Translations under genes and position numbers: made by a program
Assembly (NCBI GenBank): GCA_963734495.1
Contig: CAVTHK010000009.1
Location: 360,062 to 424,061, forward strand
DNA from: an uncultured Spirochaetota bacterium
GTDB lineage: Bacteria; Spirochaetota; Spirochaetia; SZUA-6; CAVTHK01
DNA length: 64,000 bases
Direction of reading: 5' to 3'
Part shown: positions 1,887-39,349 of the stretch, piece by piece
Layout of the letters: every line of letters starts with the position of its first letter
Numbering within the stretch: the first letter of the stretch is position 1
Notes under the pieces: model-generated
Database searches by the model: none
The model's input: only the letters and a program-made list of their open reading frames with translations
Told to the model about the DNA's origin: nothing

Positions 1887-1960
1887 GAAATTCATAGTAA
1901 TACTCGCGGGCAACGGGATCAATGCAGGGTGAAGGCCTTCGCGGGTCCCGCTGAGCGTGC

Positions 1961-2929: not shown

Positions 2930-3000
2930 GGCCGCATCGTACACAACCGACCCTTCCCCTGTCACGCGATGACGGCTATAGTGCCGTCGGAGGTCGTCCG

Positions 3001-4047: not shown

Positions 4048-4064
4048 AGAGCGGCGCGCCGTTT

Positions 4065-4174
4065 CCTCTCGACACAGCAGGGCACCTGACGCGCCCCCCC
4101 GGGTCGAAACGACTCAGGGCGGCCATGGGGTGGACGCGGGGACCGGCGCGTTATCGCCCGGAGACGCCGAGGGG
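4065..4174 (+). ncRNA. Candidate structured RNA (three-way junction), identity uncertain
   Basis: Nested stems: CCTCTCG(4065-71)/CGAGGGG(4168-74); CACCT/GGGTG; CGCCC/GGGCG; GGGTCG-AAA-CGACTC; CCGG.GCG-TTAT-CGC.CCGG; followed by an AT/U-rich tract. Confidence 0.35.
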
Positions 4175-4214
4175 CGCCGCAGCCGCCTTCATTTATATCT
4201 TTTTTTCATAGATA

Positions 4215-4440
4215 GATATCCGGCGCAGGGCCTCGACAGGCTGCAGCGGGAGATCAATCGTCTGTTCGAGCTCCCGCGCTCGGTCGAAGCCCATGGGCTC
4301 TTCGACCGCACCGTTTCTCGCTCCCGGCCACCGTCGACCCGGACAAGGTGACCGCGGTTTTCAGAGACGGCGTCCTGGAGATCACCATCGGAAAGCGCGA
4401 AGAGGCGCGGCCCAGGCGGATCGCCGTACCCGGCAGGTCG
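4215..4440 (+). pseudogene. Hsp20/alpha-crystallin small heat-shock protein remnant with an internal deletion
   Basis: N-terminal-type [13 protein letters not shown]...GLFDRTVS joined out of frame to C-terminal [36 protein letters not shown]; the core beta strands are missing. Confidence 0.75.
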
Positions 4441-4521
4441 ACGGCGCCTGCCGGCGCCGAGTACACTGTAGATGGAATGCGCGGGGCGCGGCCCGCCCCG
4501 CCCCGCGCGATGGGAGCTCAT

Positions 4522-5536
4522 GTGGCCGTCAAGTTCCGTGATTACTACGAGACTCTCGGAGTCGCGCGCAGCGCCTCGCAGCCGGAGATCCAGCAGGCGT
4601 ACCGCAAGCTCGCGCGCCAGTATCACCCCGACGTGAACAAGAGCGGCGGCGCCGAGGAAAGGTTCAAGCAGATCAACGAGGCGTACGAGGTGCTCCGCGA
4701 CCCGGAGAAGCGCAGGCGCTACGACGCCCTGGGCGACGGGTGGCGCACGGGCGAGGACTTCACGCCGCCCCCGGGCTGGGACTTCGGCTTTGGAGGCGCG
4801 GGCGGGTCCGGTTCGAACGGGGGCTTCAGCTTCGACTTCGGCGACCTCGGCCGCGGGTTCAGCGACTTCTTCGACCAGCTCTTCGGGGGCGGCGCGGGCA
4901 GCGCCGGCGGCGGCCGCGCACCGGGCGGCGGCGGGTTCCGGGGCTTCGGCGGGTTCGGCCGCGACCGCGAAACCGAGGCGGCGCCTCGGCCAGGACACGC
5001 AGGCGGAGCTCACGATCCCGCTCGAGGACGCCTATCACGGCGGCCGGCGGACCGTCACGCTCGAGAGCCGCGAGCAGGGACCTAACGGGTCCGTCCGGCG
5101 GGGGAGCCGCACCTTCGAGGTGACCATCCCCGCCGGGGTCACCGACGGCCGGAAGCTGCGCCTGAAGGGCCAGGGGGAGGCGGGATCCGGCGGCCGCGGC
5201 GACCTCTACATAACGGTCCACCTCGCTCCGCACGCGACCTTCCGGGTCAAGGACAAGGACCTCGAGGTGGACGTCCCGGTCACGCCGTGGGAGGCCGCCC
5301 TCGGCGCCGAGGTGGAGGTGCCGACGCTCGAGGGGCGCGCCCGCGTGCGGATCCCCCCGGGGATCCGCTCGAGCCAGCGCATCCGCATCAAGGGCCGCGG
5401 CCTCGGCGCCGCCGACGAGCGCGGCGACGTCTACGCGGCCATCCGCATCGAGGTGCCGCGGCGGCTCTCGCCGAAGGAGCGGCAGCTCTTCGAGGACCTC
5501 GCCGGCGCTTCGCAGTTCAACCCCCGCAAGGAGTAG
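4522..5536 (+). CDS. DnaJ-class (CbpA-like) chaperone without Zn finger; one frameshift near 4985
   Basis: J domain (DYYETLGV...HPDVNK), G/F-rich region, C-terminal domain GDLY...PWEAALG in a second frame; GGAG RBS before GTG 4522. Confidence 0.9.
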
Positions 5537-5591
5537 GGGGGAGGGCAAGGTGAAGGCGGGTGCGCTGCGCTCTCGCGGTTGCGGGGGCCTG

Positions 5592-5621
5592 TTGACTGCG
5601 GCCGCGAGGGCGTGATAGACC
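5592..5621 (+). promoter_or_regulatory. Putative sigma70-type promoter for the tyrS leader
   Basis: TTGACT (5592-97), then TG-a-TAGACC (imperfect -10, 18-nt spacer), 7 nt upstream of the leader ATG. Confidence 0.4.
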
Positions 5622-5628
5622 CCTCGAC

Positions 5629-5703
5629 ATGAGCAGCGTCGCTGCGTTCGTGATCTTCGTCTATCCCTATCCTCTCTCGCGAAGCGGGGCGAGGTCGGGG
5701 TAG
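5629..5703 (+). CDS. Leader (attenuator) peptide MSSVAAFVIFVYPYPLSRSGARSG
   Basis: 24-codon ORF with Phe-x-x-Phe-x-Tyr-Pro-Tyr (both Tyr are TAT), directly upstream of a terminator and tyrS. Confidence 0.7.
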   Translation: MSSVAAFVIFVYPYPLSRSGARSG

Positions 5704-5726
5704 GCGCGCACGGTGTGAACGTGAGG

Positions 5727-5758
5727 GCCCCCGGGCTTCGGCCCGGGGGCTTTTTTTT
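5727..5758 (+). terminator. Intrinsic terminator (attenuator) upstream of tyrS
   Basis: Perfect 10-bp stem GCCCCCGGGC-TTCG-GCCCGGGGGC followed by T8. Confidence 0.9.
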
Positions 5759-5812
5759 GCCGGCGCCGGCCGGCCCCCCGGACCGGACGCCGCGGCGGGC
5801 GAGGGGGACGAC

Positions 5813-7085
5813 ATGACGATCGAAGAGCAGGTGCGGTTCCTGATGCAGGGGACCGAGTACGGCGACGCCGCCCTGGCGGCGAGCATGGAGCGCGAGCTGC
5901 GCGAGCGCCTGGTGGAGGCCGGCCGGGAGGGCCGCCGCCTGCGGGTCTACTGCGGCTTCGACCCGCGCACGACCGACCTGCACATCGGGCACACGGTCCC
6001 CATCCGCAAGCTTCGCCAGTTCCAGGAGCTGGGCCACCACGTCATGTTCGTGGTCGGGACCTTGACTTCGACGATCGGGGACCCTTCGGACCAGGACCGG
6101 CTGCGGGCGACGCTGACCGCGGAGCAGGCGGAGGAGAACGGCCGGACCTACGCGGAGCAGGCGTTCCGCATCCTCGATCCCGTGAAGACCGAGGTGCTCT
6201 TCAACCACGAGTGGCTCGCGGGGCTTCCGTTCGCGGAGCTCATCCGGATGGCGTCGCAGTTCTCGCTCCAGCAGATCCTCGCGCGCGAGACCTTCCGCCG
6301 GCGCTTCGAGTCGGGCGACGCGATCTGGCTGCACGAGACGTTCTACTCCCTCATGCAGGCGCACGACGCGAGCCACCTCGCGGCCGACGTCCAGATCGGC
6401 GGGAGCGACCAGCTCTTCAACATCGTCACCGCGGGCCGCAGGCTGATGGAGGCCCGCGGGCAGAGACCCAACATCGCGGTGATCCTCGGGATCCTCCCGG
6501 GCACGGACGGCAGGACCAAGATGAGCAAGTCCCTCGGCAACCACATCCCGATCCTGGCGCCGGCCGCGGACATGTACGGGAAGGTGATGAGCGTTCCCGA
6601 CGAGGCGATGGCCGCGTACTTCTCGCTCGTGACGCCGCTCGCGCCCGACGAGATCGCGGACGCGATGCGCGGCCACCCGCGGGACGCGAAGATGCGCCTG
6701 GCACGGGAGATCGCGGCCGTGTTCCACGGCGGCGAGGCGGCGGCCGCCGCCGAGCGCGAGTTCGTCGCGGTCTTCCGGGAACGCGAGGCGCCCGGCGACG
6801 CCCCGCGGCACGCGCTCGCCGCCGGCGCCCCGCTGCTGGAGGTGCTGGTGGCCGCGGGGCTCGCGGCGAGCCGCAGCGAGGCGCGGCGGCTGGTCGCGCA
6901 GGGCGCGGTGAGCCTCGACGGCAGGACGCTGGCGGACGCGGCCGAGGCGCGTGGCGGCGGGCGGGCTGCTGCGGGTGGGGCGCCGGCGGTTCGTCCGCCT
7001 GGTGGCCGCGCCCGCGGCGCCGGCCGCGCCCGCCGCTCCGAGCGTGACGCCGCCGCCCGGTTCTGGTAGCATGGAGCGCGCATGA
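5813..7085 (+). CDS. tyrS: Tyrosine--tRNA ligase; frameshift near 6950 in the S4 domain
   Basis: YCGFDP..DLHIGH, GGSDQ, KMSKS; the S4 tail LLRVGRRRFVRLV is in another frame and ends at TGA 7083-85, overlapping the next ATG. Confidence 0.95.
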
Positions 7086-8335
7086 GCACCGCCTTTGCCG
7101 ATCGCATCGCGGGCGTGCCGCGTTCGTTCATCCGCGAGATCCTCAAGGTGGCGGCGGACCGCTCCGTCATCTCCTTCGCCGGCGGCCTGCCGAACCGCGA
7201 CCTCTTCCCGGTCGAGGAGATACGGGCCGCCGCGGACAAGGTCCTCCGCGACGACGGCGCCGACGCCCTGCAGTACGCCACCTCCGAAGGCTACCCTCCG
7301 CTGCGCGAGCTCATCGCCGAGCGCTACGCGAGGCGCGGGGTCGCCGTCGATCCCGCGGACATCCTGATCACCAGCGGCTCCCAGCAGGGGCTCGACCTCC
7401 TCGGCAAGACCCTGCTCAACGAAGGCGACCACCTCGTGATCGAGGAGCCGGGCTATCTCGGCGCGATCCAGGCCTTTGCCGTCTACCGGGCGACGTTTCA
7501 CCCCGTGCCGCTTCGAGGCCACGGCATCGACACCGCCCGCCTCGAGCGCGAGCTGGCGAGCGCTCCGGTCCGCCTCTACTACGCGGTGCCGAACTTCCAG
7601 AACCCTTCGGGGATCACCTACGACGGCGCGACGCGGCGCGCGGTGGCCGACATCCTGCGGCGCACGAGCACCGTTTTCGTGGAGGACGACCCGTACGGCG
7701 AGCTGCGTTTCCGCGGCGAGAGCCAGCCTTCATTCTCCACTCTCCTCGAGGAGCGCTGCGTTCTTCTCGGGAGCTTCTCCAAGATCGTGGCCCCGGCGTT
7801 CCGCATCGGCTGGCTCGTGGCGAAGGGCGAGCTCATGGAGAAGCTCCTGATCGCGAAGCAGGCCTCGGACCTTCACACCAACTCTCTCGGGCAGCGGATC
7901 ATCCATCGCTATCTCCTCGACAACCGCGTCGAGGAGCACATCGCGCGCATCCGGGCCGCCTACGGACGGCAGCGCGACGCGATGGTCGCCGCGATCCGGG
8001 CGACGTTCCCCGCCGGCGTTCGCTGCACCGAGCCCGAAGGCGGCATGTTCCTCTGGGTCACGCTCCCCGAAGGCGCGTCGTCGATGCGCCTCTTCGAGCG
8101 GGCCATCGCGCGCAAGGTGGCGTTCGTCCCGGGGGCGCCCTTCTACGTGGGCCGGGCCGACACCAACACGATGCGGCTGAACTTTTCCAGCGTCGACGAA
8201 AAGACGATAGAAGAAGGGATTGGGCGGCTGGCCGCGGCGCTGCGCGAGGGTCCGCCGGGTACGGCGGACTTGGGACTTCGCGACCCCACGAGTACATGGG
8301 GCAAATGGGACGCGAAGTCATGGGAGACGCGATGA
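7082..8335 (+). CDS. PLP-dependent class I/II aminotransferase (LysN/Aro8-like)
   Basis: ISFAGGLP, NFQNPSG, EDDPY, GSFSK...RIGW, PEGGMFLW. Confidence 0.93.
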   Translation: MSTAFADRIAGVPRSFIREILKVAADRSVISFAGGLPNRDLFPVEEIRAAADKVLRDDGADALQYATSEGYPPLRELIAERYARRGVAVDPADILITSGSQQGLDLLGKTLLNEGDHLVIEEPGYLGAIQAFAVYRATFHPVPLRGHGIDTARLERELASAPVRLYYAVPNFQNPSGITYDGATRRAVADILRRTSTVFVEDDPYGELRFRGESQPSFSTLLEERCVLLGSFSKIVAPAFRIGWLVAKGELMEKLLIAKQASDLHTNSLGQRIIHRYLLDNRVEEHIARIRAAYGRQRDAMVAAIRATFPAGVRCTEPEGGMFLWVTLPEGASSMRLFERAIARKVAFVPGAPFYVGRADTNTMRLNFSSVDEKTIEEGIGRLAAALREGPPGTADLGLRDPTSTWGKWDAKSWETR

Positions 8336-9453
8336 AGGTCGGGACCGTGCGCGAGATCAAGGCGCAGGAGTACCGGGTCGGGCTCATCCCCTCGGCCGTG
8401 CGCTCGTTCGTGAGCCGCGGGCACGCGGTCTTCGTCGAGCGCGGCGCGGGAGAGGCCGCGGGCTTTCCCGACGAGGAGTACGAGGCCGCGGGCGCGCGGG
8501 TGGTCGCGAGCCGCGACAAGATCTACGCCGAGGCGGACATGATCGTGAAGGTCAAGGAGCCGCTCCCCGACGAGCTTCCGCTCCTGCGCCGGGGCCAGAT
8601 CCTCTTTACGTACCTGCACCTCGCCGCCGCCCCCGACGTGGCGCGTGCCCTCGTGGAGCGGGGCGTCACGGGCGTCGCGTACGAAACGATCGAGACGGCG
8701 GACGGCGACCTCCCGTGCCTCAGGCCGATGAGCCAGATCGCCGGACGGCTCGCGGTGCAGGAGGGCGCGAAGTACCTCGAGAAGACTTTCGGCGGCCGAG
8801 GCGTCCTGCTCGGCGGCGTGCCCGGGGTGGCGCGCGGCAGGCTTGGCATCCTCGGAGGCGGCGTCGTGGGCATCAATGCCTGCAAGGTGGCCGTCGGGCT
8901 CGGCGCCGAGGTCACGATCCTCGACGTGAGCGCCAACCGTCTCGCGTACCTGGACGACATCTTCAGCACGCACATCACCACGCTCTACAGCACCGACGAC
9001 AACATCGAGCGCGTCCTCGCCGAGAGCGACCTGGTCATCGGCGCGGTCCTGCTGCACGGCGCGCGCACGCCGCGCCTCATCCGGCGCGAGCACCTCGCCC
9101 TGATGAAGAGAGGCGCGGTGATCGTCGACGTGGCCGTGGACCAGGGCGGGATCGCCGAGACCTCCCGGCCGACCACGCACGAGGACCCGGTCTTCGTGGT
9201 CGGCGGCATCGTGCACTACTGCGTGGCCAACATGCCGGGCGCGGTGGCGCTCTCCTCGACCCAGGCGCTCACCAGCACGACGCTCCCGTACGGGCTCGCG
9301 ATCGCGCAGGAGGGGCTCGAGGCCGCCTGCCGCGGCCTGCCCGCGCTCCGCAAAGGGCTGAACACGTACGACGGCCACTGCGTCTACCCCAGCGTCGCCG
9401 AGGCGTGCGGCCTCGACTACACCCCCGTGGAGCAGGTGCTCGGGGTCAAATGA
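8332..9453 (+). CDS. ald: Alanine dehydrogenase
   Basis: REIKAQEYRVGL, KVKEP, FTYLHLAA, DVAVDQGG, HYCVANMPGAV. Confidence 0.96.
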   Translation: MKVGTVREIKAQEYRVGLIPSAVRSFVSRGHAVFVERGAGEAAGFPDEEYEAAGARVVASRDKIYAEADMIVKVKEPLPDELPLLRRGQILFTYLHLAAAPDVARALVERGVTGVAYETIETADGDLPCLRPMSQIAGRLAVQEGAKYLEKTFGGRGVLLGGVPGVARGRLGILGGGVVGINACKVAVGLGAEVTILDVSANRLAYLDDIFSTHITTLYSTDDNIERVLAESDLVIGAVLLHGARTPRLIRREHLALMKRGAVIVDVAVDQGGIAETSRPTTHEDPVFVVGGIVHYCVANMPGAVALSSTQALTSTTLPYGLAIAQEGLEAACRGLPALRKGLNTYDGHCVYPSVAEACGLDYTPVEQVLGVK

Positions 9454-11834
9454 GCTCGGAAGCTTCCGCGGCGGCGCCCGCGCGGGCGGTGAGCGGCGCG
9501 CGCCTCTCGCGCGCCATGAGCTTCAACATCGCGGGCGGCGTGATGGCGCAGGCCTGGTTCGCCGTCTGCGGGCCCCAGCAGATCTTCAACGTCTTCTTCA
9601 AGAACCACCTGCACGCCTCCGCGTTCACGCTCGGCCTCCTGGTGGCGCTGCTGTCCTTTTCCTCCGCCTTCAGCCTCCTCGCGGTGCTCATGTTCACCAG
9701 GCCCCGCCGGCGCAAGCCCATCTGGATCGCGGCCCACCTCGCCGCCCGCTCGATCGGCTTCGTGCTGGCGGCGGCTTCGCTTCTGGAGATGCGCACCGGC
9801 GACAAGCCTCTCGCGATCCGCGTGATCCTGCTCTCGATGTCCGTGGCGTGGTCGCTCATGAACGCGGCCGGCCCCGGCTGGTGGGCCTGGATCGCCGACC
9901 TGATCCCGGAATCCAAGCGCGCGACGTTCTTCGGCCGCCGCTCGGCGATCATCTTCGCCCTGAACATGTCCTGGATCTTCCTCGTCACCGTCTTCCTCGA
10001 CGGAGCCCGGCGGCCCGCGCTCGCCTACGCGGCCGCGTTCGCGGTCTCGGGCGTGTTCGGGGTCGGAGACATCCTGCTGCACATCTGGATTCCCGACCCG
10101 GCGCGGCTCGGCCCCCGGCCCGGCGCGCCGGGAGGGCCCGCGCCCGACAGGCCCGCCCGCATGTCGCTCGCCGTCTTCTTCGAGCCGCTGCGCAGCCCGC
10201 AGTTCGTGCGCTTCTCCCTGGCGGTGGGCCTCGCGATGCTGTCGATCAACGTGCTCGCCCCGTTCATCCCGCCGTACATCACGGACCCCGCGACGGTCGG
10301 GGCGCCCTACACCTGGCTGGGCATCATGACCGTCATCTCGCAGCTCGCGTGGGTCGGCTCCGTGCGGACGTGGGGCGTCCTCATGGACCGGTTCGGCCGC
10401 AAGCCCGTGGTGGCCCTCTGCAGCCTCTTCCCCATCGCCTGGTTCGCGTACCTGGCCGTGGGCCCGCGCACGTACGTCGTGCTGCTGCCTCTGATCTCGC
10501 TCGCCGGCGGCGTGCTCGCCCCCGGCTTCTACGAGGGGGTCAACCAGCTCATGCTGAGCCTGACCCCCAACGAGAACCGCACGACGTACGTGGCGTGGTA
10601 CGTTGCGATCATCGGCGTCATAGGCGCGCTCGGCTCGCTGCTCGGAGGCGCGCTCGCGTCCAACACGGTGATGCTCGACCCGCTGCCCGGTGAGCCGTTC
10701 CACGCGGTCGTGGTGGTGGCCGAGGTGCTCACGGTCCTGAGCTTCCTCGTGCTCACCCGCATCGACGAGGGGCGGAAGACTTCGACCTTCGACATCGTCA
10801 CGCGCCTCGCGACGCCGAACGTGGTGCGCAACCTCGTGAACATGAGCATCATCGGAGGCGCCGAGGAGGCGGGGCGGGCGGCGCGGGCGCTGCGCACCGT
10901 CGAGGGGGCGGAGAGCGACGTCGCCATCGACGACATCGTCGGGCGGCTCTCGGACCCCGACCGGGAGGTGCGCGAGGAGGCGGCGCGCGCCCTCGGCCGC
11001 ATCGGCAGCGGGGAGTCTTTCGACGCCCTGGTCGCGCAGCTGCGCGACGGGGAGTCCTCGATCAGGCCGGAGGCGGCGCACGCCCTCGGCCATGTCGGCG
11101 ACCCGCGCGCGGTCACCTGGCTCCTGCAGGCGCTTCAGGATCCGTCGGTGGAGCTGCAGGAGGCGGCCGCCGAAGCGCTCGGCGACCTGGGCAGCCGCGA
11201 GTCGGCGCAGACGCTGCTCGCGATGCTCCGCGGCAACCAGGCCACGGAACGGGTCAAGGCGCAGGGCGCCGAGGCGCTGTCGCAGCTCGGCGCGGTGGAG
11301 GCCGTCTGGGAGATCGTCCCCCTGCTGCACCGCACGTCCAACGCGGTGCTCAGACGGCAGCTCGCCATCGCGCTCGCCAACCTCTTCGGCCGCACGGGAG
11401 AGTTCTACCGTTACGTGACGGGGGAATCCGCGCGCGCCGAGGCGCGCGGCGAGCGCCTCGCGGGCGAGGCCGAGCGGTCACTCCGCCGGCTGGTGCGCGA
11501 CGTCTCGCCGGACGCGAAGTCGCAGATCCTGCGGCGCTTCGCGGAAGCGCGCGAGGCCTTCGACGCGGGAGACAGCCTGCGGGCCCTCGGCTGCGTCCGC
11601 GACCTGCTGTTCGTGCTCGCGCTGTTCCGGCACGAGATCGCGCCTCCGGCGGGCGAGGGTGCTGCCGCCTGGGCGGTCGGGCGCGATCAGCGCCTGGCCG
11701 TCGCGCTCTGGGTGCTCGGCGAGGCGCTCGCGGCGCAGGGCAGCGCCGTGCAGAAGATCGACGCGCTGCTCGCGTTCTACCTGCTGAGGTACCTCCCGGG
11801 GCCGGCCCGCGCTCAGAGCCGGCCGCAGGCGTGA
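9450..11834 (+). CDS. MFS transporter fused to a C-terminal HEAT-repeat domain
   Basis: About 12 hydrophobic segments with MFS motif GVLMDRFGRKP, then repeats LSDPDREVREEAARALGRIG / LQDPSVELQEAAAEALGDLG. Confidence 0.85.
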   Translation: MSSEASAAAPARAVSGARLSRAMSFNIAGGVMAQAWFAVCGPQQIFNVFFKNHLHASAFTLGLLVALLSFSSAFSLLAVLMFTRPRRRKPIWIAAHLAARSIGFVLAAASLLEMRTGDKPLAIRVILLSMSVAWSLMNAAGPGWWAWIADLIPESKRATFFGRRSAIIFALNMSWIFLVTVFLDGARRPALAYAAAFAVSGVFGVGDILLHIWIPDPARLGPRPGAPGGPAPDRPARMSLAVFFEPLRSPQFVRFSLAVGLAMLSINVLAPFIPPYITDPATVGAPYTWLGIMTVISQLAWVGSVRTWGVLMDRFGRKPVVALCSLFPIAWFAYLAVGPRTYVVLLPLISLAGGVLAPGFYEGVNQLMLSLTPNENRTTYVAWYVAIIGVIGALGSLLGGALASNTVMLDPLPGEPFHAVVVVAEVLTVLSFLVLTRIDEGRKTSTFDIVTRLATPNVVRNLVNMSIIGGAEEAGRAARALRTVEGAESDVAIDDIVGRLSDPDREVREEAARALGRIGSGESFDALVAQLRDGESSIRPEAAHALGHVGDPRAVTWLLQALQDPSVELQEAAAEALGDLGSRESAQTLLAMLRGNQATERVKAQGAEALSQLGAVEAVWEIVPLLHRTSNAVLRRQLAIALANLFGRTGEFYRYVTGESARAEARGERLAGEAERSLRRLVRDVSPDAKSQILRRFAEAREAFDAGDSLRALGCVRDLLFVLALFRHEIAPPAGEGAAAWAVGRDQRLAVALWVLGEALAAQGSAVQKIDALLAFYLLRYLPGPARAQSRPQA

Positions 11835-11909
11835 GCGGGCGCAGCCGCGGGCGGGCGCCGGGAGCGGGCGGGCAGCTTCGCGCGGGGCTCCGTGACGGGG
11901 GCGCAGGTC

Positions 11910-13395
11910 TCAGGTGACCAGCGTCAGGGCGGCGAGCCCGACGAACACGACGGCGAGAGCGAGCTTCACGGTCCCGATGTGCGCCTGCGCGGCCCGCGTG
12001 AGCGTCCGCGAGCTCACGCCGCGCCAGGCGAGGACGAACACGACGGCAAGCGGCAGCACGAAGGCCACGTTGTAGATCGCGAGCAGCAGGTAGGCGGCGA
12101 GCCCGCCTTCGGTGCGCACCAGCCAGGCCACTGCGGGGAAGTAGACCTGGCCCGTGCAGGCCAGCTCGAACAGCGACACCACGGCGCCGAGGACGAGCGA
12201 GCCCCCGACGATCGCGCCCGAGCGCGCGTTGTCGAGGATCGTGCGCTGCATCCTGCGCTTGATCGGCTCGGGCAGTCGCAGCGCCATCTCGGCCGCGCGG
12301 CCGCTGCGCGCGAGCGCGAAGTCGCGCAGGCTCAGGGCCGCGAGCGCGAGCAGCACGGCGACCAGTACCCACCGCAGGGCGACCGCGACTCTCGGGAACG
12401 ACGCCGCGGCGCGCAGCGAATGGAACAGGCCGAGGCCCACGGCAAAGTACGCGGCGAAGACGGCAAAGGTGAAGGCCGACCCCGCGAGCAGGATCTCCGC
12501 GCGGCGGCGGCCCGCGAGCACGAGCGAGGTGAGCAGGAAGATGATGGTCGTAAAGGCGCACGGGTTCACGCCGTCGACCAGGCCCGCGGCGAACAGCGCC
12601 GCCGGCGCGAGCCGCCGCGCGATCCCCGGCAGCCGGGGCAGGGGCGGGGGCGACGGCGCCCGCCGCCGCGCCGCCGCGCGCGGCCAGCGCCGCCTCCATC
12701 CCGCTTTCGATCTCCGCCTCGCCCGAGAGCACGCGGCCGCCGACGATTGCGGCGGGCAGGGCCGGCGGGCCGGACGAGCCCGCCGCGGCCGAGAGCTCCT
12801 CGAAGACCGCGGGCTCCAGCACGTTCCTGCGGGCGATGGCGACCGGCCCGCCGGGCCGGCCCGAGAGGCGCGCCTCGAGCCGCGCGATCATCCGCTCGCA
12901 GCTGCGGCATCCCGGGGCGTAGTAGAGGAGGACCGCGCCGCCCGCCCCGGCGTCGGAGAGGCCGGCGTTGGGCGAAGGCGGGGCGGCCGGGGCGGGCTGC
13001 GGGCTCGCAGGCGGGTTCACCATGCCCGTGACCCGGTAGAGCCAGCTCGTCCCGCCGCCCGGCGCGGGCGAGGACGGCGCCGAGCGCACCACGAAGTAGA
13101 CGTCGACCTTGCCGGGCTCTTCGGGCGTGTAGCGAAGCTCGACCGCCTCCTCGGCCCCGGCCGCGAGCTCGAAGCGCGACGGGACCGCCTCCAGGCAGCC
13201 GCAGGTGCTCACGAGCGAGACGGCGATCGTCGTGCTCTCCGGGTTGGCCGCCCTGATGATGCGCGTGACCATGCCGCCGATCTCGATCCGGCCGAGGTTC
13301 CAGTCGGCCGGCGTGAGCGTCGCCTGGGCCGCGGACGGCCGGGCCGCGAGCAGGGCGAGAGCCGCGGCTGCGATCGTTACGACGGGGGAGCGCAT
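11910..13395 (-). CDS. Secreted Ig-like + thioredoxin-like (CxxC) + CcdA/DsbD-type membrane domain fusion; frameshift near 12620
   Basis: Signal peptide, STCGC Ig-like (DUF1573-like) domain, YYAPGCRSC, then membrane domain DGVNPCAF...ELACTGQVY. Confidence 0.75.
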
Positions 13396-13401
13396 GAGGC
13401 T

Positions 13402-14013
13402 TCAGTTCAGCGAGGGCTTGAAGCCGGTCTCGGCCACGATCTTGTGGATGCCGCCCAGCTCGCCGAGCGCCTCTTTCCATCCTTCCTCGGGGTTGGGGTG
13501 GAAGATGTGCTTGGCCGCCGCGGGCCGCACCACCCAGGAGTTGCGCTCGAGCTCCGACTCGAGCTGGCCCGGCGCCCATCCCGAGTAGCCGGCGTAGAGC
13601 CGTATCGGAGGACGGGAGCGCTCCTCGAGAGCGGACCACGTGTCCACGAGGAAGCCGGTCAGCGAAGAGACCAGCGGCTCGAAGAGCACGTTCTCCACGG
13701 GCGCGGAGGCATGCGGGCTGCGCACGTCCTCGGGCAGTCCCGAGTGCAGGCAGAAGAGGAACTGCGGCTGGACCGGGCCGCCGTAGAACAGAGGCACGCT
13801 CGCGGCCGCCGTCGAGGCGAGATCGGGCACGGCTTCGCCGAGAGTCACGGGCAGCTTCCGGTTGACCACGAGCCCGAAGGCGCCGTCGGCGTTGTGATTG
13901 ATGATCAGCACCACGGTCCTGTGGAAGTTGGGGTCCGCCAGATCAGCTTCGGAGATCAGGAAGTGGCCTTCGAGCCACCTCGGGCTTTTGTCGCCCGCTT
14001 CCTTGCGAGCCAT
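13402..14013 (-). CDS. YqgE/AlgH family protein
   Basis: DPNFHRTVVLI, GAFGLVVN, GGPV, GYSGWAPGQLESEL. Confidence 0.93.
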   Translation of the reverse strand: MARKEAGDKSPRWLEGHFLISEADLADPNFHRTVVLIINHNADGAFGLVVNRKLPVTLGEAVPDLASTAAASVPLFYGGPVQPQFLFCLHSGLPEDVRSPHASAPVENVLFEPLVSSLTGFLVDTWSALEERSRPPIRLYAGYSGWAPGQLESELERNSWVVRPAAAKHIFHPNPEEGWKEALGELGGIHKIVAETGFKPSLN

Positions 14014-14198
14014 GGGTCCAGTGTATTGAGGCCGCGAACGAGGGGCAAGCGGGGCGGCCGCGAACGGGCTCGGGGTCGCGTGCCTCGGGGTTCCGTCCTC
14101 GGCGCCGCCTTTCGCCGACCGCGATCGGCTTCGCACGCCCCGCCTCGGACTCTCAGACTGCGGCCGTTCACCTGGGTGAGACCGGGCACAGCCACCAC

Positions 14199-15797
14199 TC
14201 ACAACACATCATCCTTGCCGCGGAACGCCTTTCTTGCGAAGCCCAAGAGGCGGCCGATTATCCCCTTCTTCCGATACAGAGCCGCGTAGTACGCCAGCCT
14301 GTTGGCTTCCTCCGCTCTACGGCCGGCCTCGATCTGTTGCGGTGACCATTTGAGCGACCACACGACCGCTCCTCGACGAATGAGGTAGTGTGACTTGCAC
14401 GCCAGCTGCCAGTTGCCTATGGACGGCCGCACTGTAGGCCCCTCAACCGTTTCCTCAATAGACCATTCTGTCGGCCCCATAGGCGTCTTGACCTTGCATC
14501 CGCATCCGCAGGGACAAAGATGCATGGCGATGTCGAACTCCTCGGCGACGTACAGTACCCTGGGTTCGAGCACCGCCGGCATGTATTGGACGCGCTGCAA
14601 ACGGAATCTGATCGGATCTTGAGGGGAGCCGACGGTCCTCATGTCGCCGATGTCGAACAGGACGTTGAAATACGGGACCTCCTCCAGGTAGAACCCGCGT
14701 GCCTGCTTGAACCTCATCACCGCTAGGCAAGCGTTGAGCGCGTTGAGCTCGCTGATTTGAATATTGCTTCGATATAGGTCGTCTGGGCTGTCGGAGAGCT
14801 CCGCGAGTTTCATGTCTCTCACGTTTCGACCGTCCGGCGATGAATAGTATGTGGTCCGCAACATACCAGCGAGAGCCGCGCCCTGGCGCCTCAGACCCAT
14901 TCCGACGTCTACAAAGGGTATTCCCTGCGAAAGCAGCAAGTCGAACACGGCGGCCCTCGAGGAGCCCTTGTCCACGCACACGAACGCGAACGTTACACCT
15001 GCGACATCCTCAGCGGAGGAGGCATCGATCAACCGCGGCACAGCAATCAACCCGTTTCGGAAGTTGTCGTAGCGACGTCGGTAGACCTCCGCCTTCGGTT
15101 TGCCAAGTTCCCTTGCATCAAGCCTTCCGGGCGAGCGAAAGGCGTTGTGAACGTGATAGGCATCCAGATCGAATACGCGTATTTCTCGCACCGGCGTCTT
15201 CACGAGGAAGTCCAGAACATAAGAGCCCGTACCGCCGAGTCCGATCACTGCGATCACGTCGTCTTTGAAGAGCGCCGACAGATCCGATATTCCTGCTCTG
15301 CTGGTGAGAGTGTCCTGGAACTTGAACACGGAATCCGCTGCATGGTCGCCGAACGCTCGGTACGTGTAGGGAGTCGCGGCATACCGTTCCATCGCTGGGC
15401 CACAGATGATTGCGACGTAGCTTTCTATCTTCTCAAAGAAGTCCGCGAACTTCCCTTCGGTCCTCGGCTTGTTGGAGAACGATCTCTGGACCACAACGTC
15501 GGCGCTTGCGCCGCTCATGGGAAGTTGAGTGGCACCGCCCCCGAGGTTCGGGATGGGCTTGCCGTCGAGGCCGAAGGGAACCGATCCCGCGAAGTAAACT
15601 TGATGGTCGTCCTGGGCAACGTGCACTTGGTCTACGAAAACGAGTTTCGCGACAAGCGCCCCGGTCTGCAGCTCGCCCTTTTCGTTCAGGTACGGGATGT
15701 CACGAACGACAAGGTATCCGGCGTCGATCGACACCGCATACCCCTTCTCCACCATGCGCCTAATGTCATCGTTATGACTGACCAGTCGCTGAAACAC
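14199..15797 (-). CDS. ThiF/E1-like adenylyltransferase fused to an N-terminal DUF6791-like (E2-like) domain and a C-terminal DUF6527-like domain
   Basis: GTG start at 15797 (MFQRLVSHNDDIRR); LVVRDIPY, DHQVYFAG, FSNKP; E1 motifs VIGLGGTGS, DLD...HNAFRSPG, FVCVD, DVGMG; C-domain HLCPCGCG...PSIGNW..CKSHY. Confidence 0.85.
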   Translation of the reverse strand: MFQRLVSHNDDIRRMVEKGYAVSIDAGYLVVRDIPYLNEKGELQTGALVAKLVFVDQVHVAQDDHQVYFAGSVPFGLDGKPIPNLGGGATQLPMSGASADVVVQRSFSNKPRTEGKFADFFEKIESYVAIICGPAMERYAATPYTYRAFGDHAADSVFKFQDTLTSRAGISDLSALFKDDVIAVIGLGGTGSYVLDFLVKTPVREIRVFDLDAYHVHNAFRSPGRLDARELGKPKAEVYRRRYDNFRNGLIAVPRLIDASSAEDVAGVTFAFVCVDKGSSRAAVFDLLLSQGIPFVDVGMGLRRQGAALAGMLRTTYYSSPDGRNVRDMKLAELSDSPDDLYRSNIQISELNALNACLAVMRFKQARGFYLEEVPYFNVLFDIGDMRTVGSPQDPIRFRLQRVQYMPAVLEPRVLYVAEEFDIAMHLCPCGCGCKVKTPMGPTEWSIEETVEGPTVRPSIGNWQLACKSHYLIRRGAVVWSLKWSPQQIEAGRRAEEANRLAYYAALYRKKGIIGRLLGFARKAFRGKDDVL

Positions 15798-16029
15798 TGA
15801 ACACCATTCCATCCTTGACCCTGACCGATCCATCCGGAGGGAGGATCCCTTCAGGCCTGTGCCCATGGCCCTTTTTGTACTTCACTGAGTAGGTGATCTC
15901 GGGGTGTTGCGCGTAGTCTGGCACGTCAAGGGTCAGTACCTCGGCGTAGGTGATTTCGCCCTTCGTCCACTCGTGCGGAGTCCCATTGACGATGATCGTT
16001 ATTGCTTTGATCACATGAACCATTTGCAT
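15772..16029 (-). CDS. Ubiquitin-like (multi-ubiquitin family) protein, single domain
   Basis: ITIIVNG...ITYAEVL...YSVKY...EGIL..DGSVRVKDGMVFSVSATGQS is typical of this beta-grasp family; strong purine-rich RBS; overlaps the E1 gene start. Confidence 0.85.
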   Translation of the reverse strand: MQMVHVIKAITIIVNGTPHEWTKGEITYAEVLTLDVPDYAQHPEITYSVKYKKGHGHRPEGILPPDGSVRVKDGMVFSVSATGQS

Positions 16030-16048
16030 TCCCCCTTCTCTCGTAGCG

Positions 16049-16291
16049 CTACCGCTTGTCTCGCGGCGGAAACGGGTCGTTGCCTGGGGCTACGGTGTTC
16101 TTGTCCCTGAACCGACCGTCACGCCCCTGGATGGTGAGCTCGCCTCCGCCGGCGGTCTTCAGATTCTCGCGAGCGGCTCGAATAGCCGCACCCTGCGTCG
16201 GGTAGATGCGCTCGGCCCTCTCCGCGCCCACGCGTGCGTTCGCCCATCCCGTTCCCGACTTGTACACCAGTCGATCCTGCGGTTTGCTCAT
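16049..16291 (-). CDS. DUF2188-like small protein
   Basis: W...GAERA...TQ.AAI.AAR...GGGELTIQGRDGRFRDKNT...GNDPFPPR; GGAGG RBS. Confidence 0.85.
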   Translation of the reverse strand: MSKPQDRLVYKSGTGWANARVGAERAERIYPTQGAAIRAARENLKTAGGGELTIQGRDGRFRDKNTVAPGNDPFPPRDKR

Positions 16292-16338
16292 CCCGCCTCC
16301 TTTCAGGCCGTTGCCTGCGGAATCTCCAGCATGGGACC

Positions 16339-16367
16339 AATATATAGCTGTTAGGTAATAGAGTCAA
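16339..16367 (-). promoter_or_regulatory. Sigma70-type promoter for the DUF2188-Ubl-E1 operon
   Basis: Minus strand TTGACT-17 nt-TATATT. Confidence 0.7.
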
Positions 16368-16386
16368 GAAACAAATCGTTTACTAT

Positions 16387-16428
16387 TTGTATTTCTCTAT
16401 TGCACAATACAAGCTGGTGTAGTACGTT
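16387..16428 (+). promoter_or_regulatory. Divergent promoter for Xre-ImmA with an overlapping inverted repeat (candidate operator)
   Basis: TTGCAC(16400-05)-17 nt-TACGTT; inverted repeat TTGTATT(16387-93)-N12-AATACAA(16406-12). Confidence 0.55.
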
Positions 16429-16471
16429 ATATCCATAGAGCGCAAGAATCATTCAGGGAGGGAGAGCACCA

Positions 16472-17604
16472 ATGGCCGCAACCGACATTGGCAATAACAC
16501 TCGGCGCCATATGAAGATACGTGGCTTTACTGTCCCTGCGTTGGCGAAGAAGTCTGGCATCGGCACCGCGACTCTGTCGAACATCCTGAACGGCAAATCG
16601 GAACCCAAGTCCTCTACCCTCATCGGTATAGCAGCGGCACTTAGTGTGCCCGTCGTGGAGCTGGTCGCCGACTCGCCTGTCCTCAAGTCACTTCGCTTCA
16701 GAACTGCGAAGACTCTGAGCGGTAGGGAGAAAGCGGAACGAGAACAACTCAAGCATGACACCGCGCTATGGTTGGCCAACTACAGCTTCCTGAGAGGCAA
16801 TTGGGCGTGTATCAGGAATTCCGCCTCGGTGAAATCGGCGGAAAGGACCCAGAGCAGGCGGCAATCTCCGTCAGGCAAGCGCTGGACGTTCGGTCACCGG
16901 CAATTGCTGATCTCCCGCAACTAATGGAACAAGCCGGCATCAAACTGAGAATCCGGAGGTTTGGCTTCAGGAAGACCTTCGGCATATCGGTGGGCGAGAA
17001 CGATGGCGGACCCGCAATCGTGGTGAACTCGGAGCAAGGGATTCCGGTCGAACGGCAGCTGTTCAGCGTCGCGCATGAGCTCGGCCACCTTGTTCTTCAC
17101 AAGAGCTCTTACGACCAGAGCAAGGTCGATGAGAACGATGAAGAAGAGCGTGCAGCGAACCTCTTTGCGGGCCAGTTCTTGATACCCGACGAAGGCCTAG
17201 ACAAATCGTGGGAGGATTCCAGAGGACTCCACTGGGTGGACAGCGTCCTGGTCATAAAGAAGCATTTCAAAGTGAGCTACATGACCGTGCTCGTACGGCT
17301 CGCCCAGCGCTTGGCGAGGCCGGACCTTGACCTGGGAACCCTGATCGCTCGATTCAGAATGGAATATGCGGATCGCCACGGCCATCAGCTGAAGGGCCAC
17401 TACGAACCGGATCCCATTACCGGTCCAGTCGCGGATGATGATCCCAGACACCTCGACGAGACCGATTTCGTAGAGGACCGGTTTGCCAGGCTCGTGCGGC
17501 AGGCGTTCGAGAAGGAGATCATTTCAATTGGACGAGCCGGCGAAATGCTGGGACACTCACTCGAAGAGATGCGCGCCTTGGCAAGGGCTTGGCAGGAGGT
17601 ATAG
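16472..17604 (+). CDS. Xre-family HTH fused to an ImmA/IrrE Zn metallopeptidase; frameshift near 16792
   Basis: HTH LAKKSGIGTATLSNILNGKSEP; LRFRT linker; RQLFSVAHELGHLVLH (HEXXH); EERAANLFAGQFLIP; ISIGRAGEML tail. Confidence 0.9.
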
Positions 17605-17609
17605 CTGCT

Positions 17610-17712
17610 TTGTCTGCCATCGCGCGAAAGGCGGCGATATGCGACGCAAATGTGCTCATCGATTTCGTCAAGGCGGACGAAGGTATCTTGGCGATGCTCG
17701 CCGGCTATTCCG
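17610..17712 (+). CDS. PIN-like domain protein, N-terminal fragment truncated at the segment junction
   Basis: GGAGGT RBS, TTG start, AICDANVLIDF matches the PIN first-strand D-x-N motif; PIN genes commonly follow Xre-ImmA genes. Confidence 0.65.
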
Positions 17713-18751
17713 AGATACTACCATCTACCTGGGTAAATTGGCCGCCTGCAACTAAGTTGTTGCCATTCAACGCCAAAGACAGGACCACTCCATTTGTGCC
17801 GCCCATACTTGACCAGGAAACGCCATCCCAACGGGCAATATAGCTGTCAGGGTTCGTAAAAGAGCCACCTGCAAATACCTCTGTGCCACTGACCGCCAGG
17901 GCAAGGACGACTTCGCTGCCGCCGATACCCAACCCACCCCCCAATGCAGACCAGGAAGATCCGGTCCATTTGGCTATGTTCTGCGCGAACACGCTGCCGG
18001 CATGATCAAACGTACCGGCAACAAAAAGATTACCACTGCCGTCCATGGCAAGCGCCTGTACCACGCCGACGAATTTTCCACTGCTTGACAGGCCTGGAGT
18101 ACCGCCAACCAATGACCAGGTTTGGGCAACCAAATCCCAGCGGCCCAGGCTCCAGGCACTCTGACCATTCAGATCGTTGAAGCTGCCGCCGACATAAACC
18201 GACGTTCCACTGACCAGGATGGCGTAAACTTGCCCAAGGGCACCGCCTCCGAGGGCATACCACAGATGGGTAATCATGCTCCAGCGAGCGATATTATTTG
18301 CGGCGACACCGCCAGCCTGGCTGAACGATCCGCCGACATAAATATCGCTGCCACTCACTGCCATGGCATAAACCTGGCTGGCAGCCCCACCATTGGTCAC
18401 GCCATTGAGAAATCGTTTATCCCAATATTGATCCCCGACCTGCTGAGGCGCCAGCGGAGCGGTAAGCATGGCGTCGGGGGAAGGTTCAAAACGCGGACTA
18501 CCATCCGCGCCTGTATGCATCAACCAACCGCTGGCGTTAAAACTTCCTTGGGTGCCCATTTTTAATGAACCATCCGGGTTTAGTACGCCTGCAATAGTCG
18601 TTACAGGTGTTGCGGGGTTTCCATTTTGCCAATTTGCTGAGCTTTTTTGGAAAAGAAAAGATTGGACGGGATTGCCTGAAACAGGCTGGGTTAATGAAAA
18701 AAATAAGCTAATTACCATAACAATATTGAAGCGGAGGGTAGGATTCTTCAT
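17705..18751 (-). CDS. Secreted repeat/beta-propeller-like protein, C-terminally truncated at the junction
   Basis: Signal peptide; repeats of V.A.AVSG..(I/V)YVGGSF..AG.V.A.NIA(R/K)W...W.ALGGG. Confidence 0.75.
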   Translation of the reverse strand: MKNPTLRFNIVMVISLFFSLTQPVSGNPVQSFLFQKSSANWQNGNPATPVTTIAGVLNPDGSLKMGTQGSFNASGWLMHTGADGSPRFEPSPDAMLTAPLAPQQVGDQYWDKRFLNGVTNGGAASQVYAMAVSGSDIYVGGSFSQAGGVAANNIARWSMITHLWYALGGGALGQVYAILVSGTSVYVGGSFNDLNGQSAWSLGRWDLVAQTWSLVGGTPGLSSSGKFVGVVQALAMDGSGNLFVAGTFDHAGSVFAQNIAKWTGSSWSALGGGLGIGGSEVVLALAVSGTEVFAGGSFTNPDSYIARWDGVSWSSMGGTNGVVLSLALNGNNLVAGGQFTQVDGSISE

Positions 18752-18854
18752 GTGTGATTCCCCTTTGGCAAAGATATCGATGCATGCAATATTACTATTT
18801 TAAACATAAAAAATATCAATTTTATTCCATTTTTCTCCAATTGATTTTAAATAA

Positions 18855-18906
18855 AAACCTTGTCCAGAATGACTTCTAAAAATAATGCCATCCCTGGACA
18901 AGGTTT
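18855..18906 (-). terminator. Probable intrinsic terminator
   Basis: 13-bp inverted repeat AAACCTTGTCCAG/CTGGACAAGGTTT with a T-rich tail on the minus strand. Confidence 0.55.
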
Positions 18907-19005
18907 GTCGTAACCAGTCATATGAAATCTTTAAGTGATCGGTTTTAGCCGCTGTTGATCTCTTAAAAGATCATTTCACCAGATAATTGTATTTTGGGAA
19001 GACGA

Positions 19006-19464
19006 TTAAAAATTCTCGAGTAATTCCAAAACCAAGTTCAATTTTTGGCTGGCGTCCATATAGGTATACATTCCACCGGTGTACTGACCTTGCTGGACCA
19101 TGGGAATGCCTTTCGACTCCAGAACCTGAACCACTTTGCCGGTATCTTTTATCTGGAAAGCAATATGGTGAAATCCATCCCCATGATTGATCAACGCTTC
19201 TTTCCAGGTACTTGGCTCGCCAATCGGTTCAATCAGCTCCAGATCTACCTGACCGAGGTGAAAAAATGCCAGTTTTGCGCGGGCATAACTGGGTTGTCCG
19301 CAGGTACTCGGTCTTGGCGGCCTCATATTCATCTGTAATGATGACTTCGGGTCGCGGTAGTCCGAATACTTCGCAGTAGGCATCGATCGATTTTTCGATA
19401 TCTTTTACAACCAGGCCAATCTGGGTCACGATGTTTGTCCCAATCCTATCGGCTGTTCAGACAT
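19006..19464 (-). CDS. VOC/glyoxalase (methylmalonyl-CoA epimerase-like) protein, frameshifted
   Basis: TQIGLVVKDIE, LELIEP...GDGFHHIAF, LELLE across frames. Confidence 0.8.
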
Positions 19465-19493
19465 AGCTAAATCTCCTTTATTCTTACATGATC

Positions 19494-19543
19494 TTGGTGT
19501 GTTTTTTTTGTTTTTGCTTCGCAAAAACAAAAAAACACACCAA
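19494..19543. repeat. Long inverted repeat/hairpin
   Basis: TTGGTGTG-T8-G-T5-GC ttc GC-A5-C-A7-CACACCAA. Confidence 0.8.
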
Positions 19544-19593
19544 TTCGTTTTGCGTGGCCTACGTAAGTGCGGACGGCTTTTCTTGTTTTCCGA

Positions 19594-20187
19594 TCAATCG
19601 CGATTTACCCAACGGTCCAGGTTTTCAGGAAAATCATAGCTGCACAGGCGCTCTAAAAGTGATTCCGCGTTCTGGTCATGGATGAATAACATTTTATGTT
19701 CGGCGTAGATAAAGCCTTCTTCATGCGCGCGTTGAATCATCGCCAGGAGGGGATCGAAGTAATTGCGCACATTCAGCAGGCCCACCGGTTTGTGGTGAAG
19801 GCCAATTTGGGCCCAGGTCAAGCGTCTCAAATAATTCGTCGAATGTGCCATATCCTCCCGGCAGGGCGATAAATGCATCCGCCATGGCAGACATGCGCGC
19901 CTTACGGATCTGGATATCCGGTACGATTTCCAGCGAGGTCAATCCCGCATGGATCAGCTGAGGTGTATTGAGGTTTTCAGAGACAATTCCGATCACCTGA
20001 CCACCTGACTCCAGGACACCATCGGCGAGGGCGCCCATTAAGCCTGTTTTTCCCGCTCCGTAGACCAGATTGAATACCGGCATGGGCAAGCAAGGCGCCC
20101 ATTTCATAGGCGGCCTTATGATAATCCGGGTGAAGATGGTCGGCTGAACCACAGTACACGCAGATCGATATGAATAGATGTGCTCAT
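19594..20187 (-). CDS. LOG family (TIGR00730-like) nucleotide phosphoribohydrolase, frameshifted
   Basis: ICVYCGS, LVYGAG..GLMGA, RKARM...DAFIALPGGYGTFDEL. Confidence 0.88.
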
Positions 20188-35606: not shown

Positions 35607-35620
35607 GGGAAATCCTTTTT

Positions 35621-39233: not shown

Positions 39234-39349
39234 TGTGAAACCTTTCAAATGAAGAGAGATGGTATCAACAATAAAAGTATAACATAGGCAAATAAACAGC
39301 CTCTACAGGAAATGGGATGAAGATCGCCGTAGGATGTCATTGGTTATAT

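Follow-up and report, generated by a model that had tools for sequence, protein, structure and literature searches.

A Probable Type II Bub Cassette with a Fused E2–E1–Protease Enzyme, Divergent from a Regulator–Antitoxin-Like Gene, in an Incomplete Copy on a Chimeric Contig

Genes of the Block at 14199–17714

The window analysed here, 64,000 nucleotides in length, makes up the final 64 kb of contig C9 (CAVTHK010000009.1) of a metagenome-assembled genome (MAG) from an uncultured Spirochaetota bacterium (G000; 83% complete, 4.7% contaminated). Within it, positions 14199–17714 hold five readable genes and one stub, and this block is, with high probability, a Type II Bub cassette of a rare fused form. 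The cassette, which encodes a ubiquitin-like protein (Ubl) and its conjugation enzyme, lies divergent from genes for a PIN protein and for a regulator–antitoxin that resembles both CapH–CapP fusions and the RosmerTA antitoxin RmrA; the copy is incomplete and sits in a chimeric contig.

Domains were assigned by Pfam profile search of the open reading frames (ORFs) in the window, and defence genes by PADLOC profiles. The Pfam search bore out the ORF positions and the domain calls (DUF2188, Multi_ubiq, DUF6791, ThiF, DUF6527, HTH_3, and Peptidase_M78) that an earlier note, made from the letters alone, had proposed. The guanine-plus-cytosine (GC) content of the block is 57.4%, compared with 71.3% at positions 1–14198 and a genome mean of ~68%. 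The fall in GC that the note had described is therefore real on the left; the DNA on the right (17715–64000, to the contig end) has only 53.7% GC, so GC-rich sequence does not enclose the block on both sides. The features are as follows, with the two sequence boundaries placed last.

14199–15866, minus strand: BubB–BubD–BubE triple fusion; ORF of 555 amino acids (aa); Pfam DUF6791 1.2e-41, ThiF 3e-12, DUF6527 2.5e-21
15309–15770, minus strand: E2-like domain DUF6791 of the fusion, residues 33–186 (Pfam); H88, S131, and K133 invariant
14628–15299, minus strand: ThiF-like E1 adenylation domain of the fusion (Pfam); GLGGTG at residues 209–214, R244, and Y365, the last presumed to lie on the crossover loop
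14358–14531, minus strand: BubE-type DUF6527 protease domain of the fusion; C451/C453/C455/C490 as C4 zinc site, S482/H493 as catalytic dyad
14202–14357, minus strand: C-terminal helices of the fusion; helices 491–530 in the predicted model
15772–16029, minus strand: BubA, a single beta-grasp Ubl; ORF of 85 aa with probable start at 16023; Multi_ubiq 4.9e-17; ends TGQS
16049–16291, minus strand: DUF2188 protein of 80 aa, first gene of the leftward operon; Pfam 1.1e-16; GGAGG 6 nt before the ATG
16292–16471, unstranded: divergent control region, 44% GC, with a promoter-like site and a 9-nt inverted repeat
16472–16924, plus strand: HTH_3 ORF; Pfam 3.3e-09
16472–16792, plus strand: Xre-type helix-turn-helix (HTH) part of the regulator, residues 1–107 of the intact form, frame +2
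16768–17604, plus strand: Peptidase_M78 ORF with HELGH motif; Pfam 3.2e-19
16792–17604, plus strand: M78 (ImmA/IrrE-type) part of the regulator with UPF0175-like C-terminal tail, residues 108–375 of the intact form, frame +1
17589–17714, plus strand: PIN toxin gene stub, codons 1–42 of 175, by alignment to an intact relative
14049–14151, unstranded: GC-rich dispersed host repeat, the last host-like sequence before the block
17714–17715, unstranded: abrupt junction to unrelated DNA of ~54% GC, where homology to the intact relative stops

The BubA ORF overlaps the start of the gene for the fusion enzyme, which is likely to begin at M19 (15812) and would then encode 537 residues. At its other end the enzyme gene is complete, because its product shares the C-terminal GKDDVL with a fused relative (P0003) in the alignment. 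The Pfam search detected no JAB, molybdenum cofactor (Moco), thiamine, or thiolation domain within the block. A terminator scan of 14000–17900 returned no hit, and a tRNA scan of the window returned no gene and hence no tRNA attachment site.

The Fused Enzyme and Its Ubiquitin-Like Partner

Bub operons were formerly known as '6E' or 'DUF6527' operons (Ye et al. 2024, bioRxiv 10.1101/2024.11.21.623953). As described by Ye et al. 2024, the Type II form (6E.2) consists of BubA, BubBD (E2–E1), and BubE, a DUF6527 serine protease, and usually lacks a JAB peptidase. Their account of the pathway includes a tyrosine oxyester on the E1 crossover loop and a serine oxyester on the E2, where an invariant lysine and an invariant histidine flank the serine, and it assigns to BubE a C4 zinc site and a Ser/His dyad (Ye et al. 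2024).

The leftward genes of the block agree with this description in both order and residues. As in the Type II operon of E. coli ZDHYS365 (BubA/BubBD/BubE), the Ubl is followed by E2–E1 and DUF6527, with no JAB gene, and the beta-grasp protein is encoded directly upstream of the E2–E1 gene. Conservation was read from an alignment of 91 rows, 46 of which cover the BubBD residues and 50 the BubE residues. H88, S131, K133, R244, and Y365 are each conserved in 46/46 rows, which suggests an E2 part with an invariant Ser, Lys, and His and without a catalytic Cys, together with an E1 domain in which a Tyr, on the presumed crossover loop, and a putative adenylation Arg are invariant. The residues assigned, on motif spacing compared with Ye et al. 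2024, to the C4 zinc site (C451, C453, C455, and C490) and to the Ser–His dyad (S482 and H493) are each conserved in 50/50 rows, here in a fused domain instead of a separate protein. The predicted model of the enzyme (predicted local distance difference test score, pLDDT, 74.4) finds Citrobacter BubCD at ranks 1–8 of the PDB fold matches, ahead of UBA5, ThiF, and MccB. Together, the Pfam matches and the conserved residues uphold the reading of the earlier note, which had seen a Bub-type cassette of Ubl, E2/E1, and DUF6527 divergent from an Xre-HTH/M78 gene.

The small ORF, predicted in that note to be a beta-grasp protein, is modelled as one (pLDDT 83.6). The best solved match of the model is BubA of E. 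coli ZDHYS365 (PDB 9cd2; TMq 0.82, root-mean-square deviation 1.4 Å), an entry that the BubA sequence matches as well (E 2.8e-05). The BubA encoded here has one beta-grasp domain, whereas the Ubl of the E. coli Type II Bub operon has three. Its C-terminus is TGQS and not GG, and GQS ends 143/150 related Ubl ORFs; residues K21 and K70 are invariant in a 38-row alignment.

Two further differences from the E. coli operon are that BubE is fused to the C-terminus of BubBD and that a DUF2188 gene heads the operon. Locus statistics were drawn from 160 related Bub loci, with subsets used for individual counts (154, 150, 133, or 106 loci). The order Ubl, BubBD, BubE is kept in 151 to 160 of the 160. 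Among the 154 loci in which both enzyme parts could be placed, 3 are fused (L082, L083, and L140), 13 have the two parts separate but in one frame, and 138 have them in different frames. DUF6527 lies in the same chain in 7 of the 120 best homologues of the enzyme. Fused relatives include P0001–P0007, L082, and L083, and the fused relatives are 74–90% identical to the enzyme in the window over aligned columns. The BubBD–BubE fusion is thus a rare single-chain form, and it is the sole unusual feature of the cassette in the window. No mention of such a fusion was found in the passages of the Bub literature that were consulted.

As a whole, the Bub enzyme family has many members and shows strong conservation between phyla. 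Of 8000 scored candidates, at least 4108 proteins reached E <= 1e-05; a typical member has 397 aa and ~70% identity, and 80 genome loci span Acidobacteriota to Bacillota and Pseudomonadota. In the order of the host, DUF6527 is present in 3/41 genomes including G000, and its occurrence is therefore sporadic. The earlier note had anticipated homologues in defence or mobile contexts, and such contexts were found: 154 plasmid records match, plasmid p4 of Sagittula carries a module in the same gene order, and PADLOC profiles match genes of the module. The whole cassette was found in no phage of the phage collection searched, where DUF6527-like pieces occur in 3 records. These are the large phage or virus records LC667451.1, MW812339.1, and PP511379.1, with DUF6527-like stretches at 38–42% identity over ~80–100 residues and the rest of the cassette absent. 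A phage-borne BubE-like protease could serve as a counter-measure that strips Ubl conjugates.

The closest parallel in gene order is plasmid p4 of Sagittula sp. MA-2 (NZ_CP126149.1, RefSeq), which carries DUF2188, multiubiquitin, ThiF, and DUF6527 genes in the same order. As on the regulator/PIN side of the window, this module is divergent from a gene for a 377-aa 'HigA family' antitoxin and a small gene. Unlike in the window, ThiF and DUF6527 are separate genes, and the gene for the 377-aa protein has its small partner on the upstream side. On the same plasmid (L177:60-1777), a DUF4433 gene and a macro-domain gene directly adjoin the DUF2188–Bub module; we take them to be a DarT/DarG-like pair.

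Bil (BilABCD) and Type II CBASS with Cap2/Cap3 are, like Bub, bacterial E1/E2-based conjugation systems linked to defence, but they use catalytic cysteines and a JAB peptidase, unlike Bub. The PADLOC E1–E2 (Cap2) profiles match the enzyme in the window weakly, in the nucleotide-binding part (4.1e-07). The earlier note had proposed the block as a candidate defence system; according to an article in EMBO J (2026), protection against phage by Bub operons had not been demonstrated so far.

Contig Assembly and the State of the Copy

A metagenome contig, L082, carries the whole module intact and was used as the reference for the regulator and the PIN gene. Identity between the two loci is 90% for DUF2188, 86% for the Ubl, and 83% for the fused enzyme. 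The regulator of L082 is a single HTH–M78 ORF of 375 aa, 85% identical to the window in the HTH part and 77% in the M78 part, and its 175-aa PIN protein is 86% identical over the first 42 residues. The PIN gene overlaps the end of the regulator ORF by 16 nt in L082, and the PIN stub in the window likewise overlaps the regulator stop by 16 nt. In L082, at 1207–7437, the module adjoins genes for a 1821-aa protein (PADLOC DndH 7.4e-30) and an HhH-GPD glycosylase, a defence-island setting.

Aligned to the 375-aa protein, the window encodes residues 1–107 in frame +2 and residues 108–375 in frame +1, the two meeting at 16792, and the M78 part can be reached only through a −1 frameshift at ~16787–16792. 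A T-run in the window is one T shorter than in L082, which amounts to a 1-base frameshift. The rightward gene with HTH and HEXXH domains that the earlier note had proposed accordingly exists in both its domains, though in different frames. Similarly, the PIN-like ORF in the window corresponds to residues 1–42 of the 175-aa protein, but it has no Pfam match (the intact L082 protein matches Pfam PIN weakly, at 8.6e-04) and is a stub that ends at 17714. The reading frame there, an 84-codon ORF at 17589–17843, is homologous to PIN only up to 17714, and a beta-propeller ORF on the minus strand (17705–18751) also terminates at the 17714/17715 junction. A search of G000 found the remainder of the PIN gene nowhere, and a search of the same MAG for the L082 neighbours (EndoIII-like and DndH-like) found only weak EndoIII paralogues.

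Contig C9 is chimeric beyond 17714. In its tail (17715–64000, ~46 kb), all of the organism-named relatives of DusB (6/6) are from Chloroflexota, and the host's own Dus is 32% identical; several genes are split between frames or partial, namely LOG (19594–20152), OTCase (38309–39248), Aminotran_3 (37092–37823), and pyruvate kinase (35445–36068). The tail looks like a mis-joined, low-quality chromosomal stretch from another, Chloroflexota-like organism. It also carries an nSTAND1 and WD40 pair (53717–57159) and FGGY kinase, LarA-like, DegT, and ABC transporter genes.

On the left side of the block, synteny was followed in G001, a 99% complete genome of the same genus, in which DUF6527 was not found. 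In that genome, the counterpart of the DNA that ends at window position 14050 is separated by a mere 34 bp from sequence homologous to G000 C3 from 56227 on. The synteny thus skips the block, which places the resumption of the host chromosome on another contig. The AlgH neighbour matched protein clusters of Actinomycetota or Acidobacteriota, no decisive pointer to the phylum of the host. Contig C3 has a similar organization: its head (C3:1-50500) has 38–46% GC and carries a second rpoC (C3:47366-50513), frameshifted and cut mid-gene, that is 57–61% identical to the host rpoC on C16:24675-27428. With the C3 head, a further contig end at this host site is chimeric. Between it and host DNA, at C3 ~50.5–56 kb, lies a stretch of 60–62% GC with a DruE-like helicase fragment (550 aa, compared with profiles of ~1900 positions) and a HEC-05/GmrSD-like gene. 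Both host edges therefore carry an intermediate block of 57–62% GC with defence-type genes, Bub on C9 and the DruE-like and GmrSD-like genes on C3.

The host repeat at 14049–14151 has an inverted copy at C3:56008-56110, where host synteny resumes, with a core of ~47 bp that is 96% identical between C9:374125-374170 and C3:56049-56095. The idea that this ~100-bp inverted repeat marks the termini of a giant element was rejected: it is a dispersed host repeat, with 8 matches in G000 (including C5, C11, and C12) and 1 in G001.

One public sequencing run held part of window 12200–19700 (7% of sampled words). Its contigs cover the host part up to ~14150 at 85–95% likeness, and none crosses either junction. 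On the Bub block its cover is close to nil: 3 of 14 depth bins lie at 0.48–2.01, and one 151-nt piece matches at 16981–17131.

The block may itself have strayed from the genome of a different member of the community and been mis-assembled between host DNA of 68–72% GC and Chloroflexota-like DNA, with the PIN truncation and perhaps the frameshift as artefacts; the probability of this reading is only a little short of even. The continuous synteny in G001 with its 34-bp gap, the Chloroflexota affinity of the tail DusB beside the host's own Dus, the four or more split or partial genes of the tail, the C3 head (here put at 43–46% GC) with its second, cut rpoC, and the absence of DUF6527 from G001 all argue for such an origin, as does the homology to L082, which stops exactly at both block edges. 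This reading would, however, need two independent mis-joins to coincide at a single site, and the defence-gene blocks at both host edges fit the two ends of a single island. On balance, a slight preference goes to the reading in which the two intermediate blocks mark either end of a single genuine defence island of the GC-rich host, the middle of which is unassembled.

The damage to the regulator and the PIN gene could also be genuine, the copy being a decayed remnant with a true frameshift and a true deletion in the organism that carries it. Toxin loss and antitoxin decay are common among toxin–antitoxin pairs, and both lesions are present in the sequence as it stands. We nevertheless regard genuine decay as unlikely: the neighbouring foreign DNA is full of frameshifts in core genes, rpoC included, which points to indel errors in a low-coverage consensus; the missing base falls in a T-run; and the three leftward genes are intact, the enzyme showing the identity to its fused relatives noted above. 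Most likely, the PIN gene is cut at 17714 by an assembly junction, and the frameshift at 16792 may have arisen, like the many in the foreign DNA, as an error of the consensus sequence. Given the chimeric contig, the host of the cassette, the truncated PIN gene, and the frameshift should not be taken at face value. The earlier note had also proposed a switch triggered by damage or phage; with a frameshift in the regulator gene and a mere stub of PIN, such a switch cannot work in the window as sequenced.

Regulation, Associated Genes, and Interpretation

The probable assignment to a Type II Bub cassette leaves the role of the rightward genes to be weighed, for which the intact L082 proteins are informative. 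Among PADLOC profiles, the L082 regulator is matched best by RmrA (2e-33, residues 15–280, HTH plus peptidase) and less well by capP (6.2e-17, peptidase only). Neither a GAF-type domain (by Pfam) nor a cysteine switch was detected in it, and its C-terminus has a weak UPF0175-like match (6.2e-04). RosmerTA, a defence system of the toxin–antitoxin type that stands by itself, has a Zn-peptidase domain in its antitoxin (Millman 2022), and PIN-like toxins are known partners of ImmA-domain antitoxins that carry the HTH at the N-terminus (Ernits 2023, PMC10440598). The L082 protein, with its HTH and ImmA/M78 domains and its overlapping putative toxin gene, shares the plan of RosmerTA (RmrA/RmrT); the pair differs from RosmerTA in its place at a Bub operon promoter, and in the window its toxin is a stub.

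A complex prediction supports binding between the L082 HTH–M78 protein and PIN. The predicted complex reaches an ipSAE of 0.88 (best control, 0.01), at least 95% of contacts agree between runs, and partner pLDDT is at least 86; the benchmark mark is reached by 51 of 78 solved complexes and by 2 of 108 mismatched pairs. The predicted interface comprises regulator residues 347–373 and part of the HTH. In silico, an adjacent, co-transcribed toxin would therefore bind the antitoxin, a toxin that is cut to 42 codons in the window. A PIN gene of the L082 type is found beside 1 of 160 related Bub loci. PIN thus looks like the toxin partner of the regulator–antitoxin and not an effector of Ubl conjugation; the proposal of the earlier note that a PIN nuclease is the effector of the Ubl system is not supported, in view of this count, of its co-transcription with the regulator, and of its predicted binding to the C-terminal tail of that protein.

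The position of the regulator gene is that of known controllers of defence operons. CapH and CapP are placed upstream of 6e.2 ubiquitin-related operons and of DUF2188 operons by Lau et al. 2022 (bioRxiv 10.1101/2022.04.27.489752), who also report a DISARM locus with a CapH–CapP fusion beside a vapC-like gene, and CapH plus CapP accompany 168/544 Bub operons (31%) in the data of Ye et al. 2024. Among the related loci examined here, 73/106 have an M78 gene in the 2.5 kb upstream, which is divergent in 58 of these. The window has in common with CapH plus CapP an HTH and an M78 Zn-peptidase encoded upstream of a defence-type operon and on the opposite strand to it. Instead of two separate proteins, of which CapP carries peptidase, HTH, and GAF domains, however, the regulator in its intact form is a single chain whose HTH is N-terminal; neither a GAF domain nor a cysteine switch was detected in it, and the RmrA profiles fit it better.

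The intervening control region contains a promoter-like sequence, TTGACT-17-TATATT, on the minus strand (16367–16339) and, adjoining it at 16371–16390, a 9-nt inverted repeat that is a candidate operator. The spacer is ~84% identical to that of L082, and the inverted repeat is common to both. The earlier note had called this an AT-rich spacer with back-to-back promoters; the base composition stands, but the promoters reduce to the one minus-strand match, as no sigma-70-like promoter was found on the plus strand of the spacer.

The HTH–M78 and PIN genes might instead form an independent RosmerTA-like toxin–antitoxin module that merely neighbours Bub in a defence island and has no part in its regulation. 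The clear preference for the RmrA profile, which takes in HTH and peptidase together, the lack of a CapP-like GAF-type domain by Pfam, the predicted PIN binding, and the stand-alone nature of RosmerTA (Millman 2022) are in keeping with independence, and the single occurrence of the PIN gene among 160 loci indicates that it is not a Bub component. Against this, M78 genes recur upstream of Bub loci, most often divergently, in the position that Lau et al. 2022 give for CapH/CapP; L082 and the window have the spacer and its inverted repeat in common; and the roles of autoregulating antitoxin and operon regulator are compatible. We consider full independence of the pair rather improbable.

The DUF2188 product matches the PADLOC defence candidate PDC-S16 (5.6e-18), and a PDB sequence search with it gave no meaningful match. 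A DUF2188 gene lies upstream of the Ubl gene, and codirectional with it, in 20 of the 133 related loci with enough flank. Where 2.8 kb or more of sequence is available upstream, M78 genes occur in 15/15 DUF2188 loci, compared with 59/90 loci without DUF2188 (Fisher's test, p = 0.005, the loci being related and hence not independent). Control of DUF2188 operons by CapH/CapP has been described by Lau et al. 2022, with reference to Burroughs and Aravind 2020; elsewhere, DUF2188 is recorded beside a CBASS operon in one publication and named a putative Thoeris effector in another.

Several observations weigh against reading the block as a functional Bub cassette under the control of a regulator–antitoxin. 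The regulator and PIN genes are broken in the window, so that the copy may be non-functional or mis-sequenced. The score of the predicted complex could echo likeness to a solved antitoxin–PIN pair, and the one sigma-70-like match compares with 1.6 ± 1.2 expected in shuffled sequence. BubA, which ends in TGQS, has no terminal Gly, and E. coli BubA lacks one as well in the alignment. In PDB sequence searches the E1 domain scores slightly better with TcdA (6e-05) and MoeB (1e-03) than with BubCD (2.8e-03). The presumed equivalence of S131, R244, and Y365 with E. coli S106, R219, and Y342 derives from conservation and numbering, and the conjugation chemistry would be carried over from Citrobacter and E. 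coli homologues.

Although TcdA and MoeB are the best PDB sequence matches and Pfam recognizes ThiF, a ThiF/MoeB-type sulfur-carrier system (a ThiS/MoaD-like protein with its adenylyltransferase) is extremely improbable, in line with the earlier note, which had judged sulfur transfer unlikely, because the Ubl ends in GQS and not Gly-Gly, as do nearly all of its relatives, and the enzyme also contains an E2-like and a DUF6527 domain and has BubCD, ahead of ThiF, as its best fold matches, with no Moco or thiamine genes within the block.

By analogy with the characterized homologues, the E1 domain of the Type II Bub cassette would adenylate the C-terminus of the Ubl and take it onto Tyr365 as an oxyester. 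From there, Ser131 in the E2 domain would receive the Ubl and hand it to target lysines, and the tethered Ser482/His493 protease domain would trim or remove it. In an intact copy, the HTH–M78 chain would repress the divergent promoter while its tail holds the PIN toxin, and stress-activated proteolysis would lift both the repression and the restraint on PIN.

A more far-reaching version, which we put forward as speculation with the odds well against it, would make one polypeptide the repressor, sensor, and antitoxin: the HTH would shut the Bub promoter, M78 would sense damage, and PIN would be caged between the C-terminal tail and the surface of the HTH, such that a single self-cleavage would switch on the E2–E1–protease Ubl machine and free an RNase. 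DUF2188 may be a partner in this switch or its first target, since an M78 gene is present in all 15 informative DUF2188 loci.

Much of what the block contains is already known: Bub itself (2024), Bub with CapH/CapP, and the same gene order on the Sagittula plasmid. Mildly new are the single-chain E2–E1–protease form, the constant company of DUF2188, and a regulator that resembles a PIN antitoxin. Bub is a recently described, oxyester-based relative of ubiquitination, and a protein that combines E2, E1, and deconjugating protease in one chain, together with a one-domain Ubl, could suit biochemical and structural work. The clade represented here links Bub to DUF2188 and to a regulator resembling a PIN antitoxin, which offers leads on how the pathway is triggered.

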